Source: Caldisericota bacterium
GTDB taxonomy: Bacteria > Caldisericota > Caldisericia > JAAYUI01
Assembly (NCBI GenBank): GCA_029548865.1
Contig: JAKPMO010000024.1
Span: forward strand, 99,256-163,255
Length of the DNA stretch: 64,000 nt
Direction of reading: 5' to 3'
In this document: positions 16,638-61,588 of the stretch, one piece after another
Layout: each line of letters starts with the position of its first letter
Numbering within the stretch: position 1 is the first letter of the stretch
The notes under the pieces: model-generated
Told to the model about the DNA's origin: nothing
Database searches by the model: none
Seen by the model: the letters and a program-made list of their open reading frames with translations, nothing else
Position numbers and translations under genes: made by a program

Positions 16638-16681
16638 GTTGAAATTTTCCAGCCCACAACTAGACTCGCTTCGGAGGAAAA

Positions 16682-17779: not shown

Positions 17780-17820
17780 AAAGCCCAAAAAGCAATACAA
17801 AATAAAACAAACGGAGGAAA

Positions 17821-18696: not shown

Positions 18697-18789
18697 GTTT
18701 ACCCCAACAGAACCAGGTTGTCTTCTTTTTAGTATCTGCTAAAATAATTCCAGATATCATTCATGCATGTGCAATGGGGAGGTCATGCG

Positions 18790-38928: not shown

Positions 38929-39147
38929 ATGCCTATATATGAATACACTTGCCCAAAATGCGGACACGACTTCGAAGTGTTCACAGTAAAGATAGAAGAA
39001 GGAACACCATCCTGCCCAAAATGTGGCTACGAAAAAACAAAAAAGAGAATATCAATGCTTGGCTACCTGAAGCATCCGGATCACGGTGGACAAGGGAAGC
39101 TCACATCCGGGAGCACCGGCTGTAGCGATGGCTCCTGTTCAAAATAA
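38929..39147 (+). CDS. FmdB-family zinc-ribbon protein
   Basis: MPIYEYTCPKCGHDFEV...CPKCG is the FmdB/CxxC-x17-CxxC signature. Gly/Ser/Cys-rich tail. Confidence 0.7.
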   Translation: MPIYEYTCPKCGHDFEVFTVKIEEGTPSCPKCGYEKTKKRISMLGYLKHPDHGGQGKLTSGSTGCSDGSCSK

Positions 39148-40387
39148 AACAAAAGCGCAAAAAAAAGAAAACCCTTATCTTAAGGCATTTCTTTCATGGT
39201 TCGGAAAAGAGCTGGGCAAAAGCCCGAATTCAGTAAAAGCTTACCACTGGGAACTTTCCCGCTTTTTCAATTACCTTGGCCAAAACGACATCACCATTCC
39301 AGAGTGCAAAAGATTGCACATAAGAGATTTTCTCACAGAACTCAACCAGGACAATTCATCACACACAAGGGCCAGAACGCTTTTTTGCATCAAAACGTTC
39401 TTCAGGTTCCTCTACAGGGAAGGATACATACCGTCAAACCCTGCCGAAACAATTGATCCACCCAAGCAGACCCAGAAAGTGCCAAAATTTTTGCTTGCAA
39501 ACCAGTTTCGAAAGCTGATAAAAGAGCTCTGCCTTGAGGCTGAGAAAGAAAACAACACACAAAAGAAGGTCCTGAAGGTTGCCTATGAATCGGAGCCTGG
39601 CCCAGATTCATTTTTTATTCTTCTGAGAATGCTTGGATTGAACATGGAAGAAATATCCTCACTCTCTGTTTCAAAAATAAACATCAGGAGCAAAACCATT
39701 TCTCTTAATGAAAACAAAAAAATCCTGCTGGACCAAAAATCATCTGCTTGTGTGGCCCAATTCATAAACAATCAGGAACTGCAAAAATCTTTTTTTGAAG
39801 GTAACAGCAGAAAAAAAGCTTTCAAAAACCATATTTCATGGCTTGAATCAAATGGCGCCACTCAAGAAGAAGCAACCCATGGACTGGAAAGTTTTCGGGT
39901 AAACCCGGCCAAAAGGGACCTGGCGATCATAAGCCTTTTGCTGGGAACTGGAATCAGGCGAAGCGAGCTGGTTGGCCTGAACAGGCAAAACTACAATGAA
40001 GAATCGAAAACCATCATGGTCACAAGAAAAGGTGGCGACCAGCAGATTGTCGAGGTCGGCGATGAAGTCTGTGTTGCGCTTTCTCGCTACCTTGGTACAC
40101 GCAGGGACAACCTTGACCCAATGTTTCTTTCTGCAAAAGGAAAAAGGCTCAGCAATGAAGGTCTCTGGCTGATTACCAAGAAAATCCTTGGAAAATTTGG
40201 GCTTGAAGGTTCCACACATACACTCAGGCACACGTTTGTAACCGAACTCGTCAGGCAGGGAGTTCCTGTGGCAATCGTTCAATCTGTGGTCGGACACAAA
40301 AGCGCACAAACCACGATGAGATACACTCATATCATATCTTCAGACAGAAGAAATGCCATTTCCAAGATCAAGCTCGGCATAAAATAG
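39128..40387 (+). CDS. Tyrosine-type site-specific recombinase (XerC/XerD-like, with ~100-aa insertion)
   Basis: N-terminal SAM-like core-binding region (SPNSVKAYHWELSRFFNYL). C-terminal catalytic RHTF...GHKSAQTTMRYTHI (R-H-R-Y). About 420 aa versus ~300 for Xer. Start chosen at MAPVQN. Confidence 0.75.
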   Translation: MAPVQNKTKAQKKENPYLKAFLSWFGKELGKSPNSVKAYHWELSRFFNYLGQNDITIPECKRLHIRDFLTELNQDNSSHTRARTLFCIKTFFRFLYREGYIPSNPAETIDPPKQTQKVPKFLLANQFRKLIKELCLEAEKENNTQKKVLKVAYESEPGPDSFFILLRMLGLNMEEISSLSVSKINIRSKTISLNENKKILLDQKSSACVAQFINNQELQKSFFEGNSRKKAFKNHISWLESNGATQEEATHGLESFRVNPAKRDLAIISLLLGTGIRRSELVGLNRQNYNEESKTIMVTRKGGDQQIVEVGDEVCVALSRYLGTRRDNLDPMFLSAKGKRLSNEGLWLITKKILGKFGLEGSTHTLRHTFVTELVRQGVPVAIVQSVVGHKSAQTTMRYTHIISSDRRNAISKIKLGIK

Positions 40388-40397
40388 GGCCACTCCG

Positions 40398-40425
40398 TTT
40401 ACAACAGCTCTTTATGATGTATAAT
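40398..40425 (+). promoter_or_regulatory. Sigma-70-type promoter upstream of the FHA-kinase operon
   Basis: TTTACA-16 nt-TATAAT, followed by GGAGG RBS and ATG at 40443. Confidence 0.5.
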
Positions 40426-40442: not shown

Positions 40443-40958
40443 ATGATCGAATGTCCCGTTTGCGGCAGAGCAAACCTTGGTGGTGTTTTGTGTTGCGAAT
40501 CGTGCGGAGCAAAGCTCGAGCAGAAAGATGAACATTTTGAAAATGTCCTCCAGAACCCGAACCTGATAAGGTTCCCGCACCCTCCAAGCACTGTAACTTC
40601 ATCGCATCCTGCCATCAAAACACAGGTGGAGATGGTTGGAAGGTTAGCACTTAATGACGAGCACCAGTTCATCCTTGATGGCAAAAACGAATATCTGATA
40701 GGCAGAGCTGACAAATTGGCAGGGATAGTTCCTGAGATCGACCTTACTAATTTCGACAAGGAGATGGTAACATCAAGAAGGCACGCCTGTGTGACAAAAA
40801 AAGGCGACTCATACATAATTGAAGATCTTGGCTCAACAAATTTTACCTATCTGAATGGAAGAATGCTCTCCCCAAAAACCCCCACAAAGCTTGATGACGG
40901 GGACGTTATCAGGATAGGAAAAGTTTATCTGGTGTTTTCAAGAATAAAGAAAAACTAG
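40443..40958 (+). CDS. Zinc-ribbon + FHA domain protein
   Basis: N-terminal CPVCGRANLGGVLCCESCG zinc ribbon. FHA core YLIGRADK...SRRHACV...EDLGSTNFTYLNGRML...GDVIRIG. Confidence 0.8.
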   Translation: MIECPVCGRANLGGVLCCESCGAKLEQKDEHFENVLQNPNLIRFPHPPSTVTSSHPAIKTQVEMVGRLALNDEHQFILDGKNEYLIGRADKLAGIVPEIDLTNFDKEMVTSRRHACVTKKGDSYIIEDLGSTNFTYLNGRMLSPKTPTKLDDGDVIRIGKVYLVFSRIKKN

Positions 40959-40979
40959 GATTTTTATTGGAGGAAACCT

Positions 40980-43385
40980 TTGGAAAACAGGGTTATAGTC
41001 AAGAAATACAAATTGCTTGAACCTCTGGCATCTGGTGGAATGGCAACTGTTCACTTGGCAAAAAATCTTGCCACAGACGAGATTGTCGTGGCAAAAATAC
41101 CCAATTTCTCGGGGCTTCCAAATAAGGAAAAGTTCGAAAGAAGGTTTCTGAGAGAAGCCCAGATACTCTCAAAAATAAACAGCAGGTATGTTGTCAAAAT
41201 ACATGATTTTGGCAAAGAGGAGTCAACTGGAGAGTACTTCCTTATTCTAGAATACCTCCATGGCAAAACACTCGAGGAGATAGCTCAAGGGAAAGAAAGG
41301 ATTCCAGTTCCAACAGTTGTTGACCTCACAATGCAAATTGCAGAGGTACTGGGTGACCTGCACGATCAAGGAGTTGTCCACAGGGACATAAAAAGCTCCA
41401 ACATCAAAATATCTTCCGAAGGCAACATCAAGCTCTTCGATTTTGGAATAAGCAAGGGCGAGGACCTCCCAAGCATGACCAGGTCTTCTGACTTCCTGGG
41501 AACACTCCAGTACATGTCGCCAGAGCAGACTGATGGAAGGGAAGTCGACATAAGGTCTGACATATACTCGACCGGCATCGTCATTTATGAAATGCTGTTT
41601 GGCAAGTTGCCTTTTGATGCGCCATCGCCTGTTGAAGTAATCGAAATGCAGAGACACAAACAACCAAAGATACCCCCCGAAGCCAAAGAAAGGGGCATTC
41701 CAGCTTCTCTGCTGTCCTTGATGTTCAGATGTCTTGAAAAAAATCCTGCCGACAGGTTTCAAACCCCCCAAGAGCTGGCCGCAGCATTGAGGGCAGTTTC
41801 CGAAGATTTGGGGATGACCCAATCTGAAAGGGACGCCTATAGAAAAACCAAACTCACTCAGATAGCCCTTTCTTCTCCGCAATCAACTTTTAGAACACGG
41901 GCAAGAAGAAAACAAACCATGACAATAGCCCTCACAGTCGCAGGGATTATTGCCATATCTTCAGGTATCTGGCTATCAAGGGGTTGCACAAAACCACTGG
42001 AACCAGACTTTCTGGTTGCCCAGGGCGAACTTGTGCAATACCAGATTCCGCTTGCAACACCACCTGGAACAAAAGATATAGAAGCCACAATAAGTAAGTC
42101 TCCGGATGGATTGTCAGTAAAGCTTGAAAAGCAAATGGAAAACGAGGGTGAAAATTGGGTCCTCTCAATATATTCCAACCTCACAATGCCCATAGGTGTT
42201 TATGAAATAAAGCTTGGCGTACAATACACAAGAGATAACGATCTCAAAGAAAATGAGGAGACAAGCTTCAATGTTGGGGTAATAAAAGGCAATCTTGGCA
42301 ACAAAGCAATCAGGTTGATCAGTTCGGATGAAATCCCCAACGATCCGAACTCAAAGGTCGAGAATGCCGTCAAAATCAATGGAAAAATCTTTGTGCCTGT
42401 TGAAACAATTGCATCAGGGACAAAAGCTCAGACCGAATGGGACAGGGAATCCGGAAAGCTGACATACTGGACCCCAGACAAGACAATCGAGCTCAAAAAA
42501 GGTGAAAAAACTCTGAAAGAAAATGGCTCGGAGAAGCCATTGAATGAAGCGCCTGTTGTGCTCAATGACTCAATGATGGTCTCCGGTAATGTTGCCGAAA
42601 CGTACATGGACACAGCTGTGACATCAAAAAATGATTCTGAAATTGAATTGACATTCAAACAGTCCACGCCTGGCTCAAAAATTTCAATAAGCACCAAAGA
42701 CGAAAAGGGCAATGACATCAAAGGCGCAATTGTATTGATAAACCAGAACTACAAGGGCAAAACACCAATAAAAATAGAACTTCCGAATGGCGTCTACCAG
42801 ATAAAGATACAAATGGGCGGTTTTAACGATATAAACGACGAGATAAAACTTGTGACAACCAAAACCCTTGATTTGAGCTATCCACTGGTCGCAATACAGC
42901 AAAAACCGCCAGAGCAGGAAAAGAAACCGCCAGTAGAAACGAAACCCAAGCAAAACGGGTTTCTTGATCTTAGCGTCAATGTCCCATGGGGCTCTTTCAT
43001 TGTTGACGGAAAAACCCAGCAAAATATTACAAGCCTTTCACTGGAGCTTGCACCGGGCAAACACAAGGTTGTATACAGGCTAAAAGATTTCCCCGACCAG
43101 ACAAAAGATGTCCAGATCGAACCAGGGCGAAGAAACTCAGTCAAATTCCAGATTTCCTCAGGCATCCTCAAGGTGACATGCAATGTGGTAGGCATTGTAT
43201 ACATAGACAACATTGAGTTCTCGGACAGGATTTTCACAAGTCCCAAGGAACCATACATAAGGGAAGTGGCCGCAAAAACGTATATAATCCGCGTCGACAA
43301 AAGTGGATACAAGATGCAGACGAAATCTGTAAAAGTTGAGCCTGGCAAAACCACAACAGTGGAGTTTAACCTGGAACCAAAATGA
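40980..43385 (+). CDS. Hanks-type Ser/Thr protein kinase with TM segment and extracellular CuAO-N-like + PEGA domains
   Basis: TTG start 5 nt after GGAGGA. Kinase motifs ASGGMATVH, HRDIKSSNIKI, DFGISK, SPEQ. One TM helix (~res 305-325). Ectodomain carries a CuAO-N-like segment (KINGKIFVPVETIA...) and two PEGA-like modules (LPNGVYQIKI; LAPGKHKVVY). Confidence 0.85.
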   Translation: MENRVIVKKYKLLEPLASGGMATVHLAKNLATDEIVVAKIPNFSGLPNKEKFERRFLREAQILSKINSRYVVKIHDFGKEESTGEYFLILEYLHGKTLEEIAQGKERIPVPTVVDLTMQIAEVLGDLHDQGVVHRDIKSSNIKISSEGNIKLFDFGISKGEDLPSMTRSSDFLGTLQYMSPEQTDGREVDIRSDIYSTGIVIYEMLFGKLPFDAPSPVEVIEMQRHKQPKIPPEAKERGIPASLLSLMFRCLEKNPADRFQTPQELAAALRAVSEDLGMTQSERDAYRKTKLTQIALSSPQSTFRTRARRKQTMTIALTVAGIIAISSGIWLSRGCTKPLEPDFLVAQGELVQYQIPLATPPGTKDIEATISKSPDGLSVKLEKQMENEGENWVLSIYSNLTMPIGVYEIKLGVQYTRDNDLKENEETSFNVGVIKGNLGNKAIRLISSDEIPNDPNSKVENAVKINGKIFVPVETIASGTKAQTEWDRESGKLTYWTPDKTIELKKGEKTLKENGSEKPLNEAPVVLNDSMMVSGNVAETYMDTAVTSKNDSEIELTFKQSTPGSKISISTKDEKGNDIKGAIVLINQNYKGKTPIKIELPNGVYQIKIQMGGFNDINDEIKLVTTKTLDLSYPLVAIQQKPPEQEKKPPVETKPKQNGFLDLSVNVPWGSFIVDGKTQQNITSLSLELAPGKHKVVYRLKDFPDQTKDVQIEPGRRNSVKFQISSGILKVTCNVVGIVYIDNIEFSDRIFTSPKEPYIREVAAKTYIIRVDKSGYKMQTKSVKVEPGKTTTVEFNLEPK

Positions 43386-46045
43386 GAAGAAACTTTCTTC
43401 TATTAGCAGTTATTTCATGTCTCTTTGCAACGGGTATATCACTTGCCAAACCATCTTTCGACTGGTGGCCAATGATAGGGCATGACAATCTTAAAAGTGG
43501 TATAAGCAAGGATAATTATCTCCCTTTCACGCTACCTTTTAGTGAAAGCAAAAAGGGGTCCTGGGACGTATCACTTTCAAATCTCGGTGGGCTGGGAACA
43601 CCGGTCGTAAAAGATGGAGTTTTATATATTGTCCAACAGGGTTTTTACGACAAAAGGAGTGGCAATAGGCAAGAGGGAACTCTCAGACAGTATGACATAT
43701 TTACCGGGAACCTTCTCCTAGAACAAACTTTCAATGCCGTGGATGTACCAGAGCCAGGAGTGGTTGGGAGTCCTGCCATCTGGGGAGGAAATGAAGAAAA
43801 AACAGTCGTGGTTGGAGATTATCTTGGAAACATAGTCTATTTCAGGGGTATTTTCCCAAAAAAACTTGTTGATGCAGGCGGGGAGAGAACACCAATCACT
43901 TCGTCGCCAACCATATACGACAATACCTGTTACATTGGTTCCGATTCAGGAAATGTCTATGCCTTCGATCTTGCCGAATTAAGAATAACAGATTCATTCA
44001 AGGCAAAAGGAAAGATAACAACTTCGCCATCTGCGTTGAAAGATCTCATTGTTTTTGGCGATGATTCGGGGAGTTTTTTTGCATACAACAGAAAAACCGG
44101 CAAGCAGATCATAAATGCCCAGCCATCAACAAGAGATGACATATCAATAACTTCATCATCATGTATTACTGAATCACAAGGAAAAACATATGCGATTTTT
44201 GGTTCCTCAAAAGGTTTTGTGCACCGAATAACAATAGGCGGAAGTAATATCGGGCAAATTGTAAGTTTCAGGACAAGCCCCGACAGGAGAACACAGAGGC
44301 CAACTTTCTGGGCAACGCCAACCGTTGTGGATGACCAGATTTATGCAGGCGCAGACGATGGCAACTTGTACAGAATAGACCTGGGAACAATGAAATCGGC
44401 CGGAATGATAGATTTGAAAAATCCAATTTTTGCGCAAGCAACCTCGGCAGGCAAATACCTCTATGTTTGCACTGCATCGCTTGACAGCGAAGAAAATCCT
44501 GCCAGAGAGGGAAGCCTGTATACAATTGATCTTGATACATTCACAATCAATCAAACCAATGACAGTGGTATTGAGATCAAGGGTGGCTCCCTCACACAAC
44601 CGGTGATAGCTGGCGGATATATGTTTGTGGCCTCCAGGTCGGGCAAAATTTACCGTTTTGAGGGCGCCAGGCCACAGCTAATGGTTTCACCAACCCAAAT
44701 CAATTTTGGTACCATAAAATTCGGCACAGCAGGACAAAAGGATATTGTCATTAGTAATAATGGTCCTGGCGACCCGCCACTTGTCGGTGAAATCCTGGTG
44801 GATGAACAGTCGAAACTATGGCTTTCAGTCGACAAGTCGGAGTTCAAAACTTCTGGAGAAACAAAATTAACAGTAAAAGCAAGTTCTTCTAATATCAAAG
44901 ACATCAGGGAGACAGAGTATTCAGGCACTATAAGTATTGAAACCAACGCCGGAATACAAACCATTGAAGTAAAAGCAACTTTTGCGCCTGATTTGCCAAG
45001 AATACAAGTCTCAAGCTCCCAAATTGATTTCATGGACACATACAGAGGACGAAAAAATTTGAGAGAGTTTACTGTAAGCCTGGCAAAAGGATCAATGGCA
45101 ACTCTTGATTTCAAACCCTCCGAAAACTGGCTCGAATGCTCTCCACAATCAGCAACCCTCTCTGAAGGGAAAAAAAGCATAAAAATATCAGTGACTGCTT
45201 CAACTGAGAACCTTCCCATAGGGAAATATGCGGCAACAATCCAGATCGGGGACCAGAAAACAATTGCCAATCCAGTCACACTGCCAGTAACAATCAATGT
45301 TGTTCCCCAACCTGCAAGACCGAGCATAGTTAACTCCTCAGTAGAAGTTGTTTTCCAGGACTGTTTTGTGGACAAACCAAAAGAAGCGGTCTTCCAGATA
45401 CTAAACTCCGGCGACAATGATTTGAAGGAGGGCATAAAACCAATACTTTCAACCTCGTGGCTTTCAAACCCGCGCTTTGTCAAAAACAAAGGTAATTCAT
45501 GGCTATACATATGCACGATCTCACCTTCAACATTCTGGCCAAATCAACAATATACAGCATCTATCAACACCATGATAAGCTCGACGCCAATTACGCTAAA
45601 AATTACTGTAAAAACAATGCACATACCCGAATGCAAGATAGAATTTTCAATAGGATCAAAGCAGTACATTGTGAATGGAAGATCTCTACCAATGGATGCT
45701 CCGCCTTATGTTTCCAAAAATGGCAGCACTATGGTTCCAATCAGATATATAGGGGACCCACTTGGTTATTTCTACAAAGCACAGACGGAATGGGTAAAAG
45801 AGCTGAAAACGGTATTGTTTACGCTGGCTGGAACAACACTAAGGCTCATAGTGGACTACCAGAATGCCATAGTGGAAAGGGCCGATGGCTCCATAGACAC
45901 GGTAAAACTGGCTTCTCCCCCAGAGATAAAAAATGGCAGGACATTCATCCCGCCAAGAATTATTGGTGAAACGTTTGGTGCAAAAATATCTTGGGACGAC
46001 AGAACCAGAAAAGCCACCCTCGTATTTAACCAACCACCACCCTGA
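43382..46045 (+). CDS. Secreted PQQ-like beta-propeller protein with C-terminal CuAO-N-like domain
   Basis: 4-nt overlap with kinase gene. Signal peptide MRRNFLLLAVISCLFATGISLA. Repeated propeller-blade motifs (G.vYa.D...G) and Ig-like middle region. C-terminus IVNGRSLPMDAPPYV..GSTMVPIRYI...TFIPPRIIGETFGAKISWD is CuAO-N-like. Confidence 0.7.
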   Translation: MRRNFLLLAVISCLFATGISLAKPSFDWWPMIGHDNLKSGISKDNYLPFTLPFSESKKGSWDVSLSNLGGLGTPVVKDGVLYIVQQGFYDKRSGNRQEGTLRQYDIFTGNLLLEQTFNAVDVPEPGVVGSPAIWGGNEEKTVVVGDYLGNIVYFRGIFPKKLVDAGGERTPITSSPTIYDNTCYIGSDSGNVYAFDLAELRITDSFKAKGKITTSPSALKDLIVFGDDSGSFFAYNRKTGKQIINAQPSTRDDISITSSSCITESQGKTYAIFGSSKGFVHRITIGGSNIGQIVSFRTSPDRRTQRPTFWATPTVVDDQIYAGADDGNLYRIDLGTMKSAGMIDLKNPIFAQATSAGKYLYVCTASLDSEENPAREGSLYTIDLDTFTINQTNDSGIEIKGGSLTQPVIAGGYMFVASRSGKIYRFEGARPQLMVSPTQINFGTIKFGTAGQKDIVISNNGPGDPPLVGEILVDEQSKLWLSVDKSEFKTSGETKLTVKASSSNIKDIRETEYSGTISIETNAGIQTIEVKATFAPDLPRIQVSSSQIDFMDTYRGRKNLREFTVSLAKGSMATLDFKPSENWLECSPQSATLSEGKKSIKISVTASTENLPIGKYAATIQIGDQKTIANPVTLPVTINVVPQPARPSIVNSSVEVVFQDCFVDKPKEAVFQILNSGDNDLKEGIKPILSTSWLSNPRFVKNKGNSWLYICTISPSTFWPNQQYTASINTMISSTPITLKITVKTMHIPECKIEFSIGSKQYIVNGRSLPMDAPPYVSKNGSTMVPIRYIGDPLGYFYKAQTEWVKELKTVLFTLAGTTLRLIVDYQNAIVERADGSIDTVKLASPPEIKNGRTFIPPRIIGETFGAKISWDDRTRKATLVFNQPPP

Positions 46046-46134
46046 TCAAACCAGGAAAATAACGTCTCCCAGTCTCATTAGAACTCACCCAAAAATAACT
46101 TGAATGCAACCTAACATTTCATATATTCGAAATC

Positions 46135-46476
46135 ATGAAATATTTGGATGAAGAAAATGAAAGAGAACTTCAGGAAATTTCAGACATATTCTCGGCTCTG
46201 TCTTCCCCAAAGAGGCTCAAAATAATCTCCTTAATCGAAGATGGACCCTTATCAGTCACTGAAATAGCCCAGAAAATGAAGTGCAGGCCACCATGTGTTT
46301 CACAACACCTCTCGGTTCTCAAATCATGCAAAATAGTTGATTGTGAGAGAACTGGTCATGAAATGGTCTACAAATTGGCACTTTCGTGCGTCAAATCATT
46401 CATATCTTGTCTGCTAGGAAAATGTGATAGCAACGATTCTGGGTGTTCAATTGTAAAATCAGTCCATGCAAAATAA
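46135..46476 (+). CDS. arsR: ArsR/SmtB-family transcriptional regulator
   Basis: Winged-HTH LSALSSPKRLKIISLIEDGPLSVTEIAQKMKCRPPCVSQHLSVLK with Cys residues for metalloid sensing. 113 aa. Confidence 0.8.
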   Translation: MKYLDEENERELQEISDIFSALSSPKRLKIISLIEDGPLSVTEIAQKMKCRPPCVSQHLSVLKSCKIVDCERTGHEMVYKLALSCVKSFISCLLGKCDSNDSGCSIVKSVHAK

Positions 46477-46493
46477 CAAAACAGGAGGAAATG

Positions 46494-46733
46494 ATGAAAA
46501 TACAAGTGCTAGGAATGGGATGCGCAAAATGCCACTCCCTCGAAGCAAATGTCAGAGAAGCTGTTGCAAAGATGGGCATCGATGCTGAAATTGAGCCAAT
46601 CAAGGACATACAGAAAATCGTCGAGATGGGTGTTATGGCAACACCAGCAATCGCAATTGATGGAAAAGTTGTCTCTTCAGGAAGGATGCTCTCTCCATCG
46701 CAGATAACGGAGCTCATAAAACAAAACCAATAA
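46494..46733 (+). CDS. Redox-active disulfide protein 2 (small thioredoxin-fold protein, TIGR00412-like)
   Basis: AGGAGG RBS. MKIQVLGMGCAKCHSLEANVREA...GVMATPAIAIDGKVVSSG matches the ~78-aa CxxC family often found in ars operons. ATG at 46491 also possible. Confidence 0.8.
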   Translation: MKIQVLGMGCAKCHSLEANVREAVAKMGIDAEIEPIKDIQKIVEMGVMATPAIAIDGKVVSSGRMLSPSQITELIKQNQ

Positions 46734-48217
46734 TGAAGAATACAACAAAAATTCTCCTTTCCATACTTGTGCTCGTGATTGCCATTGTGAATACAAACGC
46801 GATGTTTCAACCAGGAATACCTGACAATGGTCTGGTAGCAAACGATGATTGGGCCTCATCTCCACAGTCGCAAGTCTGGGAAAAACAGTTGCAAACAGAT
46901 ATCGTCTCCGGACCCGTTTTTATCGGCTCAAGAGTAGCTGTGGCGCTTGGAAACTCGCAAGTAAATGCTTTCAGCATCTATTCAGGAAAGCTGGCCTGGT
47001 CATACAAGCTTGACCAGAAACCAAACCAGATAGCCTCAGGTAGTGATTCGGTTTTTGTCAAAACAGCCAGGCAGGTCACTTCCATTGGAGATGGCGGGCA
47101 AAAAAACTGGATATTCCAGACAGAGGCGAACATAACTACGGATTTGGCAATCCTTGGCAATATGCTATTTTTTGGGTGTGCTGACGGGAATTTCTACTGT
47201 GTTAACACCAAAAATGGCAAAAAAATCTGGCTATCTGCTTTCAAGTCAATACCAAATATAGGCCCGAAAATGCTTGGTGAAGATTACCTGTTTTTTGCAT
47301 CCACAGACAAAAAGCTCTATTGCCTCAACACATCGTCAGGAAAACAGAAGTGGGAACTTGCCCTGGATGACTCGCCAGAATGGATTTTTGCCGACCAGAA
47401 CAGGGTACTTGCGCAAGAAGGCAAATATCTTTTTGCAATCGAGGCCCAAAGCGGAAACCCAAGATGGAAATATGAAACAGGCACTGGCTCTTTACAGGCG
47501 GTTTCGTCAAAAGGCAAGTTTTTTGTCACGACTCCGGCTTTGGCGATAGATTGCTTTGATGCCAACTTCTTTGGCAAGGCATGCTGTATATCGACAGGCA
47601 AAAGATTGTGGCTGTCACAACTGGATTCTTTCCCGACAACAAGATTGTTCTGTTCCGAAGAAACAATTTTTGTCCCAAAAGGCAACTTGATTGAAAAAAT
47701 ATCTGTGGCTGATGGCTCAAAACAGGGCAATATCACGCTTGACAAGAAGATTGAATCGATTGACCTGCAAGGAGACAACATTGCAATAATCTCTGGGAAC
47801 ACGATTTCCCTCTTCAATAAAGTGCCGGAAAAAATCACATTCGTGGTTGGACAAAAAGAACTGGGCAGAGATTCTTTTGCTGTTGAGATGGACGTTGCAC
47901 CAGTCATAATTGATGGTAAATCATTCCTGCCAGCAAGGTATGTTTGCGAACCTTTTGGCGGCTCGGTCTCATGGGACCAGGGATCAAAAAAGACAACTTG
48001 CCAGCTGAATGGCAAAACATTGAGTCTATGGGTCGGGAAAAATACCGCCAGAACAAGCGGCGGTGACAAGCAGATCGACAGCAACCCCAAAATAATCCCA
48101 TTCATACAAAATGGAAGAGTAATGCTACCAATGAGATTTTTAGCAGAATCACTTGGATTAAAAGTAGGCTATGAAAACAAAAAGATAAGTATTGAAAATG
48201 AAAGAGGCCAAAAATGA
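46733..48217 (+). CDS. Secreted PQQ-like beta-propeller protein with C-terminal CuAO-N-like domain (shorter paralogue of 43382..46045)
   Basis: TAATG coupling to the upstream gene. Signal peptide MKNTTKILLSILVLVIAIVNTNA. Blade motifs (NGKKIWL; SGKQKWEL; GNPRWKY; GKRLWLS). C-terminus IIDGKSFLPARYVCEPFGGSVSWD...GRVMLPMRFLAESLGLKV. Confidence 0.7.
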   Translation: MKNTTKILLSILVLVIAIVNTNAMFQPGIPDNGLVANDDWASSPQSQVWEKQLQTDIVSGPVFIGSRVAVALGNSQVNAFSIYSGKLAWSYKLDQKPNQIASGSDSVFVKTARQVTSIGDGGQKNWIFQTEANITTDLAILGNMLFFGCADGNFYCVNTKNGKKIWLSAFKSIPNIGPKMLGEDYLFFASTDKKLYCLNTSSGKQKWELALDDSPEWIFADQNRVLAQEGKYLFAIEAQSGNPRWKYETGTGSLQAVSSKGKFFVTTPALAIDCFDANFFGKACCISTGKRLWLSQLDSFPTTRLFCSEETIFVPKGNLIEKISVADGSKQGNITLDKKIESIDLQGDNIAIISGNTISLFNKVPEKITFVVGQKELGRDSFAVEMDVAPVIIDGKSFLPARYVCEPFGGSVSWDQGSKKTTCQLNGKTLSLWVGKNTARTSGGDKQIDSNPKIIPFIQNGRVMLPMRFLAESLGLKVGYENKKISIENERGQK

Positions 48218-48636
48218 GAAGAAACATTTTATCAAGCTTTGTTTTATTGGCGGTTTTTGCAGGCTCCATTTTTCTAGCATCATGTGGAAGCAATGGGAAT
48301 CTTCCTTGTGTTAGTGAGGGGGAAACTGGTAATGGCACCATTTCGATCAAAAATGATTCTGGAATGCCAATGGTGGTCAAGGTTGGAAGGGCAACCTGCA
48401 AACCCTGCATAGTAATGACAGACACAGTCAATGAGATCGGCAAGGAGCTTGAAGGAAAAATCCAGATCGCAATTGTCGACATTGACGAAGACCCTGAAGC
48501 AGTGGAGAAGTTTCAGATACAGGGTATTCCAACAACATTCGTATTTGATGCGTCAGGCAACCAGACTTTCAGGAAAACCGGCATCGCAACAAAGGATGAG
48601 CTTGTAAGTGAGCTCAAGAAAGCAGGAATGCAGTGA
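48214..48636 (+). CDS. Thioredoxin-fold lipoprotein (TlpA/ResA-like)
   Basis: Lipobox LASCGS. CxxC as ATCKPC. Thioredoxin-fold spacing of the downstream Pro (GIPTTFVF). Confidence 0.7.
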   Translation: MRRNILSSFVLLAVFAGSIFLASCGSNGNLPCVSEGETGNGTISIKNDSGMPMVVKVGRATCKPCIVMTDTVNEIGKELEGKIQIAIVDIDEDPEAVEKFQIQGIPTTFVFDASGNQTFRKTGIATKDELVSELKKAGMQ

Positions 48637-49037
48637 AAAACAATATCACAAACACAATCATTCTTGTCATAGTGGCCCTTGCCGCACTGGGTCTTCTATC
48701 GTACAAACTCTTTTTCGAGAAGGGATCCGATTTTCCAAAACCTCAAAAAGGTGAGGTCACAATCGTCGAGCTTGGGGCAGACCTTTGTGAACCATGCACA
48801 AAACTCCGCCCCATAATGGAAGACCTGAAAAAAGAACTTGAGGGAAAAGCTGTTCTAAACAGCCTTCTTATAGATAATTCAATGAAATCTTTCTACAACG
48901 TGAAAGTAATCCCGGTCATCATCATCTTCGACAAAGAAGCAAATGAGGTAGCTAGAAGAATATTTTCACTTGAAGAAGTAGATGATGCCAGAAACTGGAT
49001 AAAAGAGAAAACTGAACCCCTGGGGGTGCAGTGGTGA
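48633..49037 (+). CDS. Membrane-anchored thioredoxin-fold protein
   Basis: N-terminal TM helix then GADLCEPCTKLRP (CxxC) and the VIPVIIIF cis-Pro region. 4-nt overlap on each side. Confidence 0.7.
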   Translation: MKNNITNTIILVIVALAALGLLSYKLFFEKGSDFPKPQKGEVTIVELGADLCEPCTKLRPIMEDLKKELEGKAVLNSLLIDNSMKSFYNVKVIPVIIIFDKEANEVARRIFSLEEVDDARNWIKEKTEPLGVQW

Positions 49038-49717
49038 TCGAGTCCCTCCTCCAGTCAATACAAAGCAACCCCTGGATTGCACCATTTACGGTGTTTTTCA
49101 CCGGGTTTCTCACGGCTTCCAATCCTTGCGTTCTTGGCATGATACCCCTCATGATCGGGGCATCAGGGGCATACCAGGGCGAAGACAAGTCCTACTGGAA
49201 AGCTGCAAAGTTCTCTCTGCTATTTGTCCTCGGCCAGTCAATCTCTTTCATGGTGCTGGGGATAATCGCAGCACTCATTGGTCAGCAGGCAACGCTGACC
49301 GGCCCCTGGTGGACATACTTCATGGCTTTCCTCTGCATTCTGATGGGACTAATGTTCGCTGATATAGTCAAATTCAACATCCCAGTGCCAAAGATACTGA
49401 CAAAACCAAGAACAGGGCTCTTCGGGGCTTTTATCCTGGGCGTTCTTTTTGGCTTTGTCTCAACACCCTGTGCTGTACCGATTCTTTCAGTATTGCTCGC
49501 TTTGATAGCAACAGGCGGAAACACATATTTTGGCGGCCTTCTCCTGCTCTGCTATGCCCTCGGGCATTCAGCTCTTCTTCTTGTGGCAGGCATCTCGATA
49601 GGTGCCGCGCAGGCCTTCATAAACAATCGGAACTTGAGAACAACTTCTCTTGTTCTCAGAAAAGTATTTGGACTTCTAATCATCGGCTTTGGGTTCTACC
49701 TGCTCTATATAGCCTAA
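49031..49717 (+). CDS. ccdA: Cytochrome c biogenesis/thiol-disulfide transporter CcdA (DsbD TM-domain family)
   Basis: Six TM helices. First Cys in NPCVLGMIPLMIG, second in STPCAVPIL. This is a DsbD_2 signature. Confidence 0.8.
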   Translation: MVIESLLQSIQSNPWIAPFTVFFTGFLTASNPCVLGMIPLMIGASGAYQGEDKSYWKAAKFSLLFVLGQSISFMVLGIIAALIGQQATLTGPWWTYFMAFLCILMGLMFADIVKFNIPVPKILTKPRTGLFGAFILGVLFGFVSTPCAVPILSVLLALIATGGNTYFGGLLLLCYALGHSALLLVAGISIGAAQAFINNRNLRTTSLVLRKVFGLLIIGFGFYLLYIA

Positions 49718-49732
49718 ATTTCTGGAGGAAAA

Positions 49733-50701
49733 ATGGACATCTTCGCACCAGTAAACTGGTTTGCAAAATGGCTCACATACGACATTTTCAGAATACAGCA
49801 CGAATCACTGCTTGGAGAAGCTGTCAGTTTCTTTGTTTTTGACACCATAAAAGTCTTCATGCTTCTCATCGCAATCATATTTGTGGTTTCCTACCTGAGA
49901 ACATACCTGCCACCAGAGAAAGTCCGGTTCTTTATCTCAAAGAGAAACAAAATAACTGGACACATTATGGCTGCAGCCTTCGGTATCATAACGCCATTTT
50001 GCACCTGCAGTGCGATCCCGCTCTTTCTGGGCTTCCTGGAAGCCGGTGTCCCGCTTGGCGTGACATTCTCATTCCTCATAGCCTCGCCAATGATAAACGA
50101 GGTGGCACTGGTAATGCTCCTTGGCATGTTTGGGTGGAAGGTGGCTCTGATTTACATTGCATCAGGAATGATAATTGCCATTGTGTCAGGACTCGTCATC
50201 GGCCAGCTCAAGGTGGAAAACCTGGTCCAGCAATTTGGGACCGGGAAAAAAGCCTGTGCCTGCGCAGAAGATGGGATGCCTCTAAAAGCAAAGGACAGGG
50301 CATCATACGCCTGGAGCTATGTTGTGGATGTCCTAAAAAAGGTTTGGCCATTCATCGTTGGCGGAATAGCTGTCGGGGCCTGGATACATGGTTATGTTCC
50401 TGTTGACTTCATGGCAAAAATTGCCGGTGGAAACAACTGGTGGGCAGTTCCAGTAGCCACGCTGATCGGGATTCCCCTTTACAGCAATGCCGCAGGCATC
50501 ATCCCGCTTGTTTCTGTTCTTACAGAAAAGGGCGTCAGCCTCGGGACAACCCTTGCCTTCATGATGGCTGTTACCGGCCTTTCGCTCCCCGAGTTCCTGA
50601 TCCTGAGGACCGTCATGAAAACCAAACTAATCCTTATTTTCGCTGGCATTGTTGGTATCGGGATAATCCTCACAGGCTATCTGTTCAACGCAATATTGTA
50701 G
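49733..50701 (+). CDS. arsP: ArsP-like permease (DUF318/COG0701), putative trivalent organoarsenical efflux
   Basis: Polytopic membrane protein with the family-specific TPFCTCSAIP motif (the TPFcSCS motif of ArsP) in the first half. Confidence 0.75.
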   Translation: MDIFAPVNWFAKWLTYDIFRIQHESLLGEAVSFFVFDTIKVFMLLIAIIFVVSYLRTYLPPEKVRFFISKRNKITGHIMAAAFGIITPFCTCSAIPLFLGFLEAGVPLGVTFSFLIASPMINEVALVMLLGMFGWKVALIYIASGMIIAIVSGLVIGQLKVENLVQQFGTGKKACACAEDGMPLKAKDRASYAWSYVVDVLKKVWPFIVGGIAVGAWIHGYVPVDFMAKIAGGNNWWAVPVATLIGIPLYSNAAGIIPLVSVLTEKGVSLGTTLAFMMAVTGLSLPEFLILRTVMKTKLILIFAGIVGIGIILTGYLFNAIL

Positions 50702-50717
50702 AAAAAGGGACTCAAAC

Positions 50718-51785
50718 ATGAGTGATACAACTGAACCAAAATTGTCTCTTCTGGACAAGCTTTTACCCCTCTGGATAGTGGCCGCAATGCTTCTGGGGGT
50801 GGCCATCGGTAAACTGTTTCCATCCCTTGGACCGGTGTTGAACTCGATAAAAATCGCCGATGTTTCACTGCCAATAGCCATTGGCCTCCTCTGGATGATG
50901 TATCCAGTATTGACAAAAGTAAAATACGAAAAGATCTCCAGTTTGGTATCCAACAAAAAAATATTCTCATACTCGATTGTATTAACCTGGGTCATAGGCC
51001 CCGCCCTAATGTTTGGGCTAGCATGGCTAATGCTTCCAGATATGCCAGAGTACAGAACAGGGATAATCCTCGTAGGATTGGCACCTTGCATTGCAATGGT
51101 GCTCGTCTGGAACATGCTGGCCAAAGGAAGCGGTGAAATAGCAGCAATTCTTGTGGCCATAAATTCAGTTATCCAGATATTCATGTATTCAGTTCTCGGA
51201 TTCTTCTATCTCGAAGTTTTGCCTGGATGGCTTGGCCTCAACCAGACGCAAATACAGATTTCAATGTGGCAAATAGCAAAAAGCGTTCTCATTTATCTTG
51301 GCATACCGCTTCTTGCAGGCTACCTTACCAGAAAAATCCTGATCCAGAAAAAAGGTGAGGCATGGTTTGAAAAACACTTTTTGCCAAAGTTGTCACCAAC
51401 AGCACTTGTGGCATTGCTTTACACAATCGTTCTCATGTTCTCAATGCAGGGTGAAAAAATCATTTCTTTGCCATTTGACGTATTGAGGATTGCACTACCT
51501 CTTCTGTGCTACTTCCTTATTATGTGGTTCGGCACATTCTTTGGAGCAAAAACACTAAAATTCAATTACAGTGAATCGGCATCGGTGGCATTCACTGCCG
51601 CTGGGAACAATTTTGAACTGGCAATCGCGGTTTCGGCAGGAATTTTTGGCATTGCCTCCGGGCAGGCGCTGGCAGCTGTTGTTGGGCCACTCATTGAAGT
51701 TCCGATCCTTGTTTCGCTTGTGTATGTCTCGCTTTGGGCGCAAAGATTTTTCAAGGAAAGATCTGCTAACTCGGCATTGGGTTAA
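50718..51785 (+). CDS. acr3: Arsenite efflux transporter ACR3
   Basis: LSLLDKLLPLWIVAAMLLGVAIG N-terminus and 10-TM BART-superfamily profile. 355 aa. Confidence 0.9.
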   Translation: MSDTTEPKLSLLDKLLPLWIVAAMLLGVAIGKLFPSLGPVLNSIKIADVSLPIAIGLLWMMYPVLTKVKYEKISSLVSNKKIFSYSIVLTWVIGPALMFGLAWLMLPDMPEYRTGIILVGLAPCIAMVLVWNMLAKGSGEIAAILVAINSVIQIFMYSVLGFFYLEVLPGWLGLNQTQIQISMWQIAKSVLIYLGIPLLAGYLTRKILIQKKGEAWFEKHFLPKLSPTALVALLYTIVLMFSMQGEKIISLPFDVLRIALPLLCYFLIMWFGTFFGAKTLKFNYSESASVAFTAAGNNFELAIAVSAGIFGIASGQALAAVVGPLIEVPILVSLVYVSLWAQRFFKERSANSALG

Positions 51786-57531: not shown

Positions 57532-58752
57532 TTACATTTTCACCGAATATGTACCCCTATTGGTCAGAAAATAGAGTGCACCATCGCGATCTTCATAACG
57601 GGCCAAATAAACCTCAGTTCCATTTTCAAAAGGTTGGATATTATCAACAGTGAACTCGGCCGAACCAGCTACTCCCTCTTTCACTCTAACTATTTTGTAT
57701 CCATCACCAATTTTGAACAGGTAGGATTTATACAAAAAATCTTTAGGTGCATGACCACTATCGTTATTTCTGTTCAATTGCAATGGTGTTACTGCTTCAT
57801 ATCCCTTGCCATCGATCACCTTAACAAATTTCGCTCTATCGCTTTTGCGCTTGGCATCCTTGATCCAACAAATACCGTCAGAATATGGGAAAATCATATC
57901 ATCAGAGAACCCTGGCCTTACATTTTCAACTGGTAGTTTGAAATTGTTGCCTACATCAAAATCACGGACATGCGCAAAAGTGCTTGACGAAAGCAGAAAT
58001 TTACCATCAGAAAAAACGTAGGAGTAATCCTCATATGGGTCATCTTTAGCATTCATTGATTCTATCTTGTTCGGTTCCAAACATGGATCAGAAGCTATTT
58101 TCTCAAAAATTTTCGCTATTCCGTCCTTCTGATCAATCGTGTAATATCTTAATTTGCAGCCATCATTGACTATAAATAATGGAAACTCCGGAAAGATGTC
58201 GTATCCATTATTTACTTTCATTATGCCAAGATCCAGCCCACTATATAAAAGTTTTGCCTCGATAAATCCATTACCTCTAAGAACTAATTGCCGATCTTCA
58301 ATATCAGATGATGGTTCATGTATGGTTTTCTTGCTTATTATCACATCTGATTTGGTTTTTGTTTCCCACAATATCTTCTTTTTCGGTATATCATAACAAG
58401 CAAGATAATTGGAATCTTCCATCTTGCTTAAAACTGACAGAACAAGGGTGCCACCGGTAAAAAATAATGAGTGGTCAATATATTTGCCGCTTAATTCTGT
58501 TTCCCAAACCGGCATTTTTCTTGTTATGTCCTCATAACCAAACATTCTGGTGCCATCTTTGCTGACGGTCAGCAAAAACCTGTCACTTTTAAATGGAGCC
58601 TTATCAACATAACTTATTGGCTTTTCTTCAAAGGGTTTGTTATCGATGAGGTTCCATTTGATATAATTTTCTGGCGCTCCACAGGAAATCAAAGCGGCTG
58701 CAATCAACAAAACAATGGACGATTTTAGGGATATACAGCTCATGGCCACCAA
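57532..58752 (-). CDS. Lipoprotein, hypothetical (possible beta-propeller; ~406 aa)
   Basis: Lipobox LISCGA. PQQ/propeller-like KKILWETK motif. Low-GC DNA. Confidence 0.5.
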   Translation of the reverse strand: MVAMSCISLKSSIVLLIAAALISCGAPENYIKWNLIDNKPFEEKPISYVDKAPFKSDRFLLTVSKDGTRMFGYEDITRKMPVWETELSGKYIDHSLFFTGGTLVLSVLSKMEDSNYLACYDIPKKKILWETKTKSDVIISKKTIHEPSSDIEDRQLVLRGNGFIEAKLLYSGLDLGIMKVNNGYDIFPEFPLFIVNDGCKLRYYTIDQKDGIAKIFEKIASDPCLEPNKIESMNAKDDPYEDYSYVFSDGKFLLSSSTFAHVRDFDVGNNFKLPVENVRPGFSDDMIFPYSDGICWIKDAKRKSDRAKFVKVIDGKGYEAVTPLQLNRNNDSGHAPKDFLYKSYLFKIGDGYKIVRVKEGVAGSAEFTVDNIQPFENGTEVYLARYEDRDGALYFLTNRGTYSVKM

Positions 58753-59984
58753 AAATTATGTGAGTCTTTGTTTCCTCTTATTAGTCGTACGTTGGTTGTA
58801 TAAATACCTTCGTTTGTAAAAAGTGTTATTTTTGAATTTGTAGCGCGCGCGGAATAGGATCTAACATTTTTTATAATCCCGTTAATAGGAGTAAAACCTA
58901 TCTCTGTGTATCCTTTATCAGACATCCAGTAGCCTTTCAGCGTGTATCTACCACCCATCTGTTTTCCAAACAAATAAAAACTCTCCTGAATACCCAGAGA
59001 GAAATCTATTATACCAATACATTCCAGACCAGGGTCATTTATCGAATAGGAAACATCCCCATTCTTTTTCGACACAGCTATAATGCCAGTGTCATTATAG
59101 AAAAACTCATTGGCCATCCAGTGATTCTCTTCAACAGCTTTAGGCCAACATTGTTTTAACAATGAATGTTTCTTTTCCCACACAATCTTGCCAGAAATCA
59201 AATCTATGCTGTAAACAGAGTTGCCATTATAGAACATGAAAGCCCTTGTATCGTCAATTACATTCCTTGCTATTGTACTTACAAAAAACGTTTTTTCTAT
59301 TTCCCCACCAGGAATACTGATGGTTCTTTCCAACTTCAGGTTATTATAAACAAACATATTGTTTCCATCATAACAAACAAACCTGAAATTGCTGCCATAA
59401 TCACCGAATTTGCATAATGCAACTTTTTGGCCAAAATCTTTTTCGAGTATCAATTCTCCATACAAGTCATATACTTGCAGATGTTTCCCATCTTCTGAAA
59501 GACACATGATTTTTTCAAGCTGTTTGTCATCATTGATATAAAAAGAATTAACAATTTTTGCAGATTTGGTGTCTTTTTCCCAGAACAAATAGGCCTCAGA
59601 CCAATCACTTTTACACACCCTTATAACGTCAACAATTTTATTGCCAGCGTTTGTACGTATAATTGCAAGCAAATGCTCTGAGTCATATTTGGTAAAACAG
59701 TCCTGTTTATAGTAAACACCGGCAAGCTCACAACCTGATGCTGTCCATGCTATCGAAAGTATCTCGCCACCAACATCAAACTCGCGAATTCTAGATAACA
59801 CCTTATTAACCAGGACCAGTTTACTTTCTTCAGCCACAACGACCTCACCACCATACAAAACAAGTAAAGGCTTAAATACTTCGTCACTTACTTTCTGCAC
59901 GCTGTTGATTTTCAATATGCATCCTCCAACAGAAGCACAAAATATGATTATTAATATTACCGGAATTGATATTGCCTTTTTCAT
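58740..59984 (-). CDS. Lipoprotein, hypothetical (possible beta-propeller; ~414 aa)
   Basis: Signal peptide with ASVGGC lipobox. ISGKIVWEKK motif. 13-nt overlap with the downstream lipoprotein gene. Confidence 0.5.
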   Translation of the reverse strand: MKKAISIPVILIIIFCASVGGCILKINSVQKVSDEVFKPLLVLYGGEVVVAEESKLVLVNKVLSRIREFDVGGEILSIAWTASGCELAGVYYKQDCFTKYDSEHLLAIIRTNAGNKIVDVIRVCKSDWSEAYLFWEKDTKSAKIVNSFYINDDKQLEKIMCLSEDGKHLQVYDLYGELILEKDFGQKVALCKFGDYGSNFRFVCYDGNNMFVYNNLKLERTISIPGGEIEKTFFVSTIARNVIDDTRAFMFYNGNSVYSIDLISGKIVWEKKHSLLKQCWPKAVEENHWMANEFFYNDTGIIAVSKKNGDVSYSINDPGLECIGIIDFSLGIQESFYLFGKQMGGRYTLKGYWMSDKGYTEIGFTPINGIIKNVRSYSARATNSKITLFTNEGIYTTNVRLIRGNKDSHNFWWP

Positions 59985-60108
59985 GCTCCTCCTTTAGCTA
60001 AAAGTTTCCTTTTCCATGGCCTCAGTGTTCTTAGATTGAGAGACGGATTTTTCCCACACTCTCCTACTTGTTTTTTTGGAACTATCAGATCTTCGAGAAT
60101 TTATAATA

Positions 60109-61362: not shown

Positions 61363-61588
61363 TTTATCAGTACCTCCTCTTCATGTTCTCTGTTATGATT
61401 TTATACCACTGTCAAGGTATTGGTTTTTTGTAGTTCTTGCCAACTTTGCTTTTTGCAGAAACGGTACCTTTGAGAGAATGCATAGTATACCTATCATCAT
61501 TACCGTTAGTTGTGACTATAAGATCATCAATTGTTTTCCCAAGATTTTCAAAAGCTTTTCCAAAAGCATTCTGTGAGGATTTATGACA

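Follow-up and report, generated by a model that had tools for sequence, protein, structure and literature searches.

A putative operon specific to Caldisericia encodes a Hanks-type receptor kinase, an FHA protein, and a candidate secreted propeller partner

In a 64-kb stretch of contig JAKPMO010000024.1 from a Caldisericota bacterium (the window), three adjacent genes encode a small protein with a zinc ribbon and an FHA domain, a receptor Ser/Thr kinase, and a secreted protein with a beta-propeller head. We will call these three genes the triad. The triad is conserved across diverged relatives, whether or not its neighbors are, and as judged by homology searches, it is specific to the class Caldisericia. 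We propose that the triad is a lineage-specific receptor-kinase operon that senses the state of the cell envelope, with the secreted propeller protein as a partner of the kinase and the FHA protein as the readout. We put the probability of this proposal at roughly 55%.

All three genes are on the + strand and are tightly packed, as the initial annotation of the window had described. The FHA gene (40443..40958) encodes 171 amino acids from an ATG start, the kinase gene (40980..43385) encodes 801 amino acids from a TTG start, and the propeller gene (43382..46045) encodes 887 amino acids from an ATG start. There is a GGAGG at Shine-Dalgarno distance from the start of the FHA gene (5 nt before it) and another one 8 nt upstream of the kinase's TTG; relatives have ATG at the aligned position. 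The reported 4-nt overlap is also present, as the kinase's stop codon and the propeller gene's ATG share the sequence ATGA. Across seven lineages, the gap between the kinase and propeller genes is -4, 0, 1, 0, 10, 1, or 29 nt. From its position, the propeller gene appears to be translationally coupled to the kinase gene.

A sigma-70-type promoter, TTTACA-16-TATAAT, lies just upstream of the triad (40398..40425, + strand). With a score of 11/12, this is the top promoter-like site within 14 kb, but there are no more promoter-like sites in those 14 kb than in shuffled sequences, so the 11/12 match alone proves little. What makes the promoter convincing is a phylogenetic footprint: across about 10 loci, the spacers and flanks have diverged between lineages while both hexamers were kept. 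TTTACA-16/17-TATAAT is found upstream of the FHA gene in the window and at the related loci L006, L007, L008, L010, L011, L012, L031, and L034. L029 has TATACT as the -10 hexamer, and L032 has the variant TTTGCA-18-TATACT. Thus, the site that had been proposed to drive the three tandem genes precedes the FHA gene in all of the lineages that we examined, which supports the view of the triad as one promoter-led, tightly packed, conserved unit.

The initial annotation suggested checking if the three genes stay together in related genomes. They do: the order FHA-kinase-propeller is kept at every locus with enough context, including at least eight diverged lineages of Caldisericia; the loci that keep the triad are L001-L005, L006, L007, L008, L010-L012, L029, L031, L032, and L034. 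The exact 887-residue protein is found on metagenomic contigs from anaerobic digesters and in the metagenome-assembled genome GCA_017992475.1 from NCBI, and there are near-identical loci in GTDB representative genomes that are labelled as Caldisericia or Caldisericales. More diverged orthologs were located via the propeller protein (P0002, P0005, and P0006), the kinase ectodomain (P0024 and P0025), or the FHA protein (P0185 and P0191). At L032, the triad is intact without the recombinase gene that precedes it in the window and without any of the arsenic-resistance (ars) or redox genes that follow it in the window. Instead, it is flanked by a creatininase gene (upstream, on the opposite strand) and by a gene for a DUF11/CLIPPER protein (downstream). 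This indicates that the conserved unit is the triad itself.

To quantify conservation, we compared the window to six other lineages, one of which (L011) is near-identical to the window. The catalytic domain of the kinase is 78-97% identical between lineages and the FHA domain is 67-90% identical. The kinase's juxtamembrane segment is 32-70% identical and the modules of its ectodomain are 28-93% identical (28-60% without L011). In the propeller protein, identities are 25-87% for the propeller head (25-52% without L011), 20-91% for the Ig stalk (20-45% without L011), and 50-96% for the C-terminal Cu_amine_oxidN1 tail (50-65% without L011), so that the tail is the best-conserved part (50-65% versus 20-52% elsewhere). 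For comparison, the corresponding identities within these genomes are 61-75% for RapZ, 50-68% for RpoN, 61-63% for QueA, 56-57% for ribosomal proteins S6 and L9, and 39-56% for LipB. The kinase's catalytic domain is more conserved than these neighboring ribosomal and housekeeping proteins (39-75%). At the level of sequence, this shows that purifying selection acts very strongly on the catalytic domain of the kinase and on the FHA domain, while the extracellular parts evolve quickly. The identities of the kinase and FHA domains, relative to housekeeping proteins, suggest an unusually strong constraint on the signalling core, as would be expected for a central regulator.

The kinase was initially described as having a TTG start, one transmembrane helix, and an ectodomain with a Cu_amine_oxidN1-like domain and two stretches of PEGA; the open reading frame, the hydropathy profile, and Pfam all agree. 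The catalytic domain spans residues 10-264 (Pkinase, PF00069; 2.8e-47, 161.7 bits versus a cutoff of 31.7), and it is followed by a juxtamembrane segment (residues 276-312) and a single hydrophobic helix (residues 313-333). The ectodomain comprises a beta-sandwich (residues ~344-435), a Cu_amine_oxidN1 domain (residues 463-553; 1.9e-14 in Pfam), and three sandwiches that resemble PEGA or CarboxypepD_reg (residues ~566-800). Pfam's PEGA matches two stretches of this last region (4.2e-20), and the C-terminal sandwich is CarboxypepD_reg-like by Pfam. A word-indexed search with the ectodomain found 4 clusters, and in this search, the placement of Cu_amine_oxidN1 inside a kinase ectodomain was found only in this lineage. 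A cysteine just outside the membrane, Cys336 (nt 41985-41987), lies 2-3 residues beyond the transmembrane helix (R/K-G-C) and is invariant in all of the kinase orthologs. Possible roles for Cys336 are a disulfide bond between molecules or redox sensing.

Within the catalytic domain, the Gly-rich loop (G19-G20), the VAIK lysine K39, the alphaC glutamate E59, the HRD motif H134-R135-D136, N141 of the catalytic loop, the DFG motif D154-F155-G156, and the APE-like S180-P181-E182 are invariant among the orthologs, and the catalytic residues align with those of PknB. Judging by these residues, the protein is a catalytically intact Hanks-type Ser/Thr kinase. Also, T167 and S169 align with T171 and T173 of PknB, which are phosphorylated sites in the activation loop. 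The closest solved structures to the kinase domain are PknB from Staphylococcus aureus and from Mycobacterium tuberculosis (PDB 4eqm and 1mru; E = 1e-50 to 1e-55), and the catalytic-domain matches, including StkP, span E values of 1e-42 to 1e-55. The kinase also has the combination of kinase domain, juxtamembrane segment, and single transmembrane helix that characterizes the Stk1/PknB receptor kinases. However, the NCBIfam model for these kinases (PknB_PASTA_kin, NF033483) gives just 266 bits, versus a cutoff of 450, because the protein has no PASTA repeats: the alignment covers profile positions 3-304 only and nothing in the profile's C-terminal half, and Pfam finds no PASTA repeats in the kinase. 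By these scores, the catalytic domain is PknB/Stk1-like, but the protein does not belong to the PASTA-kinase family.

The product of the first gene was proposed to be a reader of phosphothreonine, and every canonical residue for binding phosphothreonine is indeed present. The FHA domain spans residues 84-159 (PF00498; 4.5e-16, 59.5 bits versus a cutoff of 20.7), and its binding loops (Gly-Arg, Ser-x-x-His, and Asn-Gly) are all canonical and invariant. Specifically, C4, C7, C18, C21, G87, R88, S111, H114, N133, N138, and G139 are invariant among the orthologs; the four cysteines form a CxxC...CxxC zinc ribbon at residues 4-21. We found about 20 clusters of orthologs, with lengths of 171-174 amino acids, and those with a named source are from Caldisericia or Caldisericales. 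The next matches, beyond the orthologs, are zinc-ribbon-FHA proteins from Chloroflexota, at no more than 43% identity.

Between the zinc ribbon and the FHA domain lies a linker motif, IRFPHPPSTV (residues 42-51, nt 40566-40595), that is conserved across lineages. In seven lineages, only its second position varies (I-R/K-F-P-H-P-P-S-T-V) while the flanking residues diverge. The best NCBIfam matches of the FHA protein are the models for OdhI/GarA and FhaB, with scores far below their cutoffs; for instance, the GarA/OdhI model (NF041660) gives 44 bits versus a cutoff of 200, so the FHA protein is not assigned to that family. It also lacks the ETTS motif and has the RFPHPPSTV linker motif instead. 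By analogy with GarA and OdhI, we infer that the Ser-Thr pair in this motif (S49/T50) may accept a phosphate or serve for docking. We also considered if the FHA protein might be TagH (Fha1), from the PpkA/TagH threonine-phosphorylation pathway of type VI secretion, but TIGR03354 gives 35.6 bits versus a cutoff of 120, and Pfam scans of the window's open reading frames found no type VI secretion families in the neighborhood of the triad.

The third protein begins with a signal peptide (residues 1-22; from hydropathy), which is followed by an 8-bladed, BamB-like propeller (residues ~34-430), a stalk of three Ig-like domains (residues 431-749), and a C-terminal Cu_amine_oxidN1 domain (residues 750-887; 9e-34 in Pfam). 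Pfam identifies Beta-prop_ACSF4/PQQ_2 repeats, two Ig-like families, and Cu_amine_oxidN1. The A-x-A|KP site for signal peptidase I is kept in the orthologs and Cys13 is not, which implies that the protein is secreted and is not a lipoprotein. A model from AlphaFold 2 (pLDDT 80.2) has a propeller head, a stalk made up of three Ig-like domains, and the C-terminal domain. The closest structures to the head, according to Foldseek, are the designed propellers Cake8 (TMt 0.85) and Tako8 (0.82), as well as BamB (0.72-0.74), while the stalk resembles the Ig domains of HYDIN. The propeller's conserved residues are the Gly, Trp, Pro, and Asp at structural positions in the blades. Although the fold is shared with BamB, we rejected BamB as the protein's identity: TIGR03300 gives 45.6 bits versus a cutoff of 285, there is no lipobox, and there is an Ig stalk.

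When 1.84 billion representative sequences were searched exhaustively with a profile, only about 5 clusters of full-length orthologs of the propeller protein were found. In the same search, many unrelated proteins of 700-800 amino acids matched only the Ig and Cu_amine_oxidN1 stalk. When we searched contigs with the propeller alignment, the full-length matches were from very close relatives only, along with unrelated Cu_amine_oxidN1 proteins from Clostridia. The next-best matches in the databases are fusions of a kinase to PQQ repeats. The initial annotation referred to the protein as a PQQ-propeller, but since no quinoprotein model matches it, PQQ is just the name of the repeat family here, and we saw no sign of quinoprotein chemistry.

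The initial annotation also took the Cu_amine_oxidN1 domain that is shared by the kinase and the propeller protein as a sign that they form a complex. This argument did not hold up. In the window, four proteins carry the domain: the kinase, the 887-residue propeller protein, a second propeller protein of 494 residues (46733-48217), and a secreted protein of 1109 residues (18763-22092). Because Cu_amine_oxidN1 is common on surface proteins here, its presence in both partners is not evidence for a specific complex. Furthermore, the copy in the kinase barely resembles the one in the propeller protein (E = 0.015). The 1109-residue protein (+ strand), which is otherwise unrelated and has a Glucodextran_B-like domain, has a C-terminal Cu_amine_oxidN1 tail, which shows that the tail is a general module of surface proteins in this organism. 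The "anchoring" role of the domain is a suggestion from the literature (PMC4137172), where the domain is associated with hydrolases of the cell wall or of peptidoglycan (PMC4137172; bioRxiv 10.64898/2026.09.23.753664). The only role that has been demonstrated is dimerization, namely the homodimerization of PaSOD (PMC10432803). As for the 494-residue protein, which had been called a paralog of the longer one, BLASTP aligns only the Cu_amine_oxidN1 tails (30% identity) and a blade-sized stretch of 38 residues. By this alignment, the two propeller proteins are not close paralogs.

We predict the kinase-propeller interaction, the signal, the phosphorylation sites, and the target as follows. The single-pass kinase would sense a cue from the cell envelope or from outside the cell. 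Driven by the one conserved promoter, the kinase and its secreted propeller partner would be made in coupled amounts. At the surface, where its Cu_amine_oxidN1 tail may hold it, the propeller protein would bind a ligand or act as a scaffold for the kinase. The kinase would autophosphorylate at T167/S169 in the activation loop. The FHA protein would dock on the kinase's phosphothreonine and/or become phosphorylated in the RFPHPPSTV linker motif, and it would relay the signal, as GarA or OdhI do, to a probably central target in the cell. The fusions of kinases with PQQ repeats that occur in other organisms (seen in our database matches and in PMC1262709 and bioRxiv 10.1101/2025.01.12.632604) imply that such propellers serve as partner domains for kinases.

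Several observations weigh against this proposal. Co-transcription of the triad is inferred from the spacing of the genes and from the conserved promoter, and Cu_amine_oxidN1, in this organism, is a promiscuous domain. Two of the kinase-propeller fusions (P0008 and P0009) have no obvious hydrophobic transmembrane segment between the kinase and the propeller, as judged by eye, and look cytosolic, so they are a weak (Rosetta-stone) analogy for pairing outside the cell. The AlphaFold 2 model of the full kinase, from an alignment of 5 sequences, is poor (pLDDT 56), with the beta-sandwiches visible. Finally, we found neither a PP2C phosphatase nor an obvious substrate gene linked to the triad among the 45 of the window's 62 open reading frames of at least 150 amino acids that were scanned with Pfam; the open reading frames at 717-2737, 14587-18639, and 63039-63935 are unannotated. 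Overall, the conserved triad, the phosphothreonine-binding residues, and the intact single-pass kinase of the initial annotation stand, while the case for a complex via Cu_amine_oxidN1 is weakened, and neither an obligatory link to the ars genes nor an island marked by the recombinase is supported.

The role of the propeller protein can be viewed in several other ways. In a more ambitious version of our proposal, the triad would be a "split" receptor kinase, from a deep-branching phylum that is reported to lack lipopolysaccharide, in which Cu_amine_oxidN1 and PEGA domains replace PASTA repeats, the wall-tethered propeller is the ligand-binding subunit and pairs with the kinase via Cu_amine_oxidN1, the RFPHPPSTV motif is a GarA-like switch, and the whole is a master regulator of growth or of the envelope in Caldisericia. 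This would be consistent with a kinase domain that is more conserved than neighboring ribosomal proteins, but we give it only about half the credence of the simpler proposal. Somewhat less likely again is that the kinase and the FHA protein are a functional module on their own and that the propeller is an unrelated surface protein, such as an adhesin or a protein that binds a substrate or polymer, that rides in the operon. Surface proteins of the propeller/Ig/Cu_amine_oxidN1 type form a multigene family in these genomes (besides the second propeller at 46733-48217, there is another at 19923-20525 of L032), many proteins share the Ig/Cu_amine_oxidN1 stalk, the extracellular domains evolve quickly (20-52% identity), and pairs of FHA proteins and kinases are common without any propeller (PMC1262709). 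However, the propeller gene directly follows the kinase gene, with near-zero spacing, in 7/7 lineages, even though their propeller heads share just 25-50% identity; wherever upstream context is available for a full-length ortholog of the propeller protein, the kinase precedes it; and the roughly 5 clusters of propeller orthologs are all in this lineage, which matches the distribution of the kinase. It is very improbable that the 887-residue protein works in the periplasm as a dehydrogenase with PQQ as cofactor, and that the kinase monitors this activity or its product. The PQQ_2 repeats in Pfam and the very weak matches to profiles of quinoprotein ethanol dehydrogenases (E = 1e-3) would fit, but neither PF01011 nor TIGR03075 matches the protein, it has no vicinal pair of cysteines, and its invariant residues are structural positions in the blades. 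Also, Foldseek's top 50 hits from the PDB are BamB and the designed Cake and Tako proteins, with a tetrathionate hydrolase propeller among ranks 48-50 and no quinoprotein dehydrogenase.

The remaining alternatives stem from the neighbors of the triad. Downstream is an ArsR-led ars/redox locus (46135..51785, + strand; annotated with Pfam and NCBIfam) that encodes, in order, ArsR, an MTH895/ArsE-type thioredoxin, the 494-residue secreted propeller with its Cu_amine_oxidN1 domain, two exported thioredoxins, CcdA/DsbD_TM, an ArsP_1 permease, and ACR3 (420 bits, above the cutoff). The initial annotation's observation that this locus adjoins the triad is true of the window and of most lineages, with a shuffled gene order. 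The triad might be the sensory arm of this locus, with the kinase sensing thiol, redox, or metalloid stress outside the cytoplasm, for instance via Cys336, and acting with ArsR, the exported thioredoxins, CcdA, ArsP, and ACR3. The persistence of the neighborhood despite the shuffling would fit, as would the invariant Cys336 just outside the membrane, the lack of a predicted + strand terminator past 46045, and the presence within the locus of another secreted propeller with a Cu_amine_oxidN1 tail and an invariant C...CC motif. At L008, arsR begins 12 nt past the stop codon of the propeller gene (12664-12677), so a functional link and co-transcription are possible there, but not required. The junction varies, and at L007, an unrelated gene for an Rce1-like CPBP protease (12691-13299) lies in between. 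Also, the association is not obligatory: besides the intact triad at L032, which has no ars or redox genes, L029 has a reduced locus that lacks arsR, the short propeller, and ACR3. Furthermore, the locus has its own ArsR and a weak promoter-like site (46100-46127), and the conservation of the kinase and of the FHA protein suggests a core role and not an accessory role in stress. We consider the sensory-arm explanation to be improbable. Upstream of the triad is a gene for a tyrosine recombinase (39086..40387, + strand; 433 amino acids; Phage_integrase and Phage_int_SAM_1 in Pfam), and the kinase domain matches PADLOC's models for PD-T4-6 and for mad6 of MADS, so we considered if the recombinase might have brought in the block at 40.4-51.8 kb as part of a mobile element, or if the block might be an anti-phage kinase system. 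We consider both ideas to be very improbable, and the mobile element is largely refuted. The recombinase is directly upstream, as had been reported, but it is Xer-like (173-188 bits to the models for XerD, XerA, and XerC, which are below their cutoffs), and it sits between lipB, together with a small Zn_ribbon_8 open reading frame in several lineages, and the FHA gene. It is syntenic after queA-lipB at L006, L007, L008, L029, and L031. There is no change in GC content or skew, there is no tRNA, direct repeats in the flanks are at the level expected by chance, and a scan with Rfam found no match. Housekeeping genes flank the region: rapZ, rpoN, and queA come before it, and in relatives, grpE-dnaK-dnaJ lies beyond the locus. 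Because of these features, and because the recombinase is missing at L032 where the triad persists, the block does not seem to be an integrase-borne island. As for defense, the PADLOC matches are generic and cover only the catalytic domain, an unrelated kinase in the window (22105-25671) scores equally well, the FHA and propeller proteins have no PADLOC match, and the conserved synteny of the core argues against a defense island.

The neighboring genes have a few other notable features. Relative to its SAM-like domain (residues 34-113) and catalytic domain (residues 275-416), the recombinase has about 150 extra residues in between. The preceding open reading frame (~38930-39150), which overlaps the recombinase gene, encodes a 72-residue Zn_ribbon_8 (FmdB-like) protein and contains a duplicated repeat that codes for CPKCG (38950-38969 and 39013-39032); the pairing of these two genes is conserved at L006, L007, and L031. 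In the ars/redox locus, ArsR (46135-46476) has a conserved C-R-P/L-P/S-C motif and not the classical CVC site. The 494-residue propeller (+ strand) is 31-33% identical to its orthologs at L006 (14722-15969), L007 (14381-15844), and L008 (14776-16275), yet the motif C274-x-D-A-N-F-F-G-K-A-C284-C285-I-S-T-G-K-R-L-W is nearly invariant among all of them, and its three cysteines, which include a vicinal pair, are fully so. This propeller, whose gene lies among those for exported thioredoxins, CcdA, ArsP, and ACR3, is a candidate for a surface protein that binds metalloids or is redox-active. The genes that follow it (48214-49717, + strand) encode a thioredoxin with a lipobox-like LASC and a CKPC motif, a membrane-anchored thioredoxin with CEPC, and then CcdA/DsbD_TM, and they look like an extracytoplasmic thiol-reducing set.

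Elsewhere in the window, a second, cytoplasmic Ser/Thr kinase (22105-25671, - strand; 1188 amino acids) combines Pkinase, AAA_16, and TPR domains and adjoins rpsF and rplI. In the distant lineage L032, a kinase with Pkinase and AAA_16 domains (3280-6735; TPR was not recorded) lies beside these ribosomal genes, with the rpsF-ssb-rpsR-rplI calls coming from L032 only. This looks like another conserved kinase of Caldisericia. Also, at 57532-62833 (- strand), there are four consecutive open reading frames of about 410 amino acids each, with N-termini that resemble signal peptides or those of lipoproteins, no match in Pfam, and a lower GC content (0.36-0.42). Two of these (60109-61362 and 61589-62833) are tandem paralogs with 75% identity.

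To our knowledge, a single species of Caldisericota has been cultured, and signalling in this phylum has not been described. The triad is a compact and strongly conserved candidate for a central pathway of envelope or growth sensing. It would exemplify a PknB-like kinase that has a non-PASTA ectodomain and that works with a secreted propeller from a gene of its own. Should this pairing prove to be real, then bacterial receptor kinases can acquire sensor domains in trans, instead of by fusion, and the widespread Cu_amine_oxidN1 module, whose function is undefined, gains a testable role. Since the parts of the triad are well known, this extends existing biology without altering it; what is new is the lineage-restricted architecture of the ectodomain and the operon-coupled secreted propeller, in an understudied phylum.

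Among known systems, the kinase's catalytic domain is closest to PknB, PrkC, and StkP, which are Stk1-family PASTA kinases from Actinobacteria and Firmicutes. The triad kinase shares their layout, with a juxtamembrane segment, a single transmembrane helix, and extracellular repeats, and it has Thr and Ser in the activation loop at the positions of T171 and T173 of PknB. Just as those kinases have FHA partners (FhaA, FhaB/FipA, and GarA/OdhI), the triad encodes a small FHA protein alongside the kinase, and the kinase's very high conservation suggests a core role like that of PknB. But in place of PASTA repeats, the triad kinase has a beta-sandwich, Cu_amine_oxidN1, and three PEGA-like sandwiches. 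Unlike at pknB loci, no gene for a PP2C phosphatase, rodA, or pbpA is linked to the triad. Where GarA has the ETTS motif, the triad's FHA protein has an N-terminal zinc ribbon and RFPHPPSTV. And unlike PknB-type systems, the triad also encodes a secreted propeller protein.

The combination of a Hanks-type kinase with a propeller is known from fusion proteins, such as the AfsK-type kinases with PQQ repeats, PknD from M. tuberculosis with its NHL propeller, and PDB entries 7eq5 and 7dxn (described as [quoted passage not shown]). In these fusions, the PQQ_2/BamB-like propeller is a non-catalytic module for interaction or sensing. In contrast, the triad's propeller is a separate protein that has a signal peptide, an Ig stalk of its own, and a Cu_amine_oxidN1 tail, and it is linked to the kinase only by the operon. 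The 8-bladed fold and the PQQ_2 family are shared with BamB (YfgL), an outer-membrane lipoprotein of the BAM complex, but the triad's propeller protein has no conserved lipobox and is 500 amino acids longer, due to the Ig stalk and the Cu_amine_oxidN1 tail. Caldiserica were reported to lack the core genes for lipopolysaccharide (PMC5007114), and the phylum has been discussed among the lineages that lost the outer membrane (bioRxiv 10.1101/2021.05.31.446380). Finally, surface proteins and cell-wall hydrolases of Firmicutes with PF07833 tails carry the same C-terminal module on exported proteins as the triad's propeller protein does, but the triad has this module inside the kinase's ectodomain as well.

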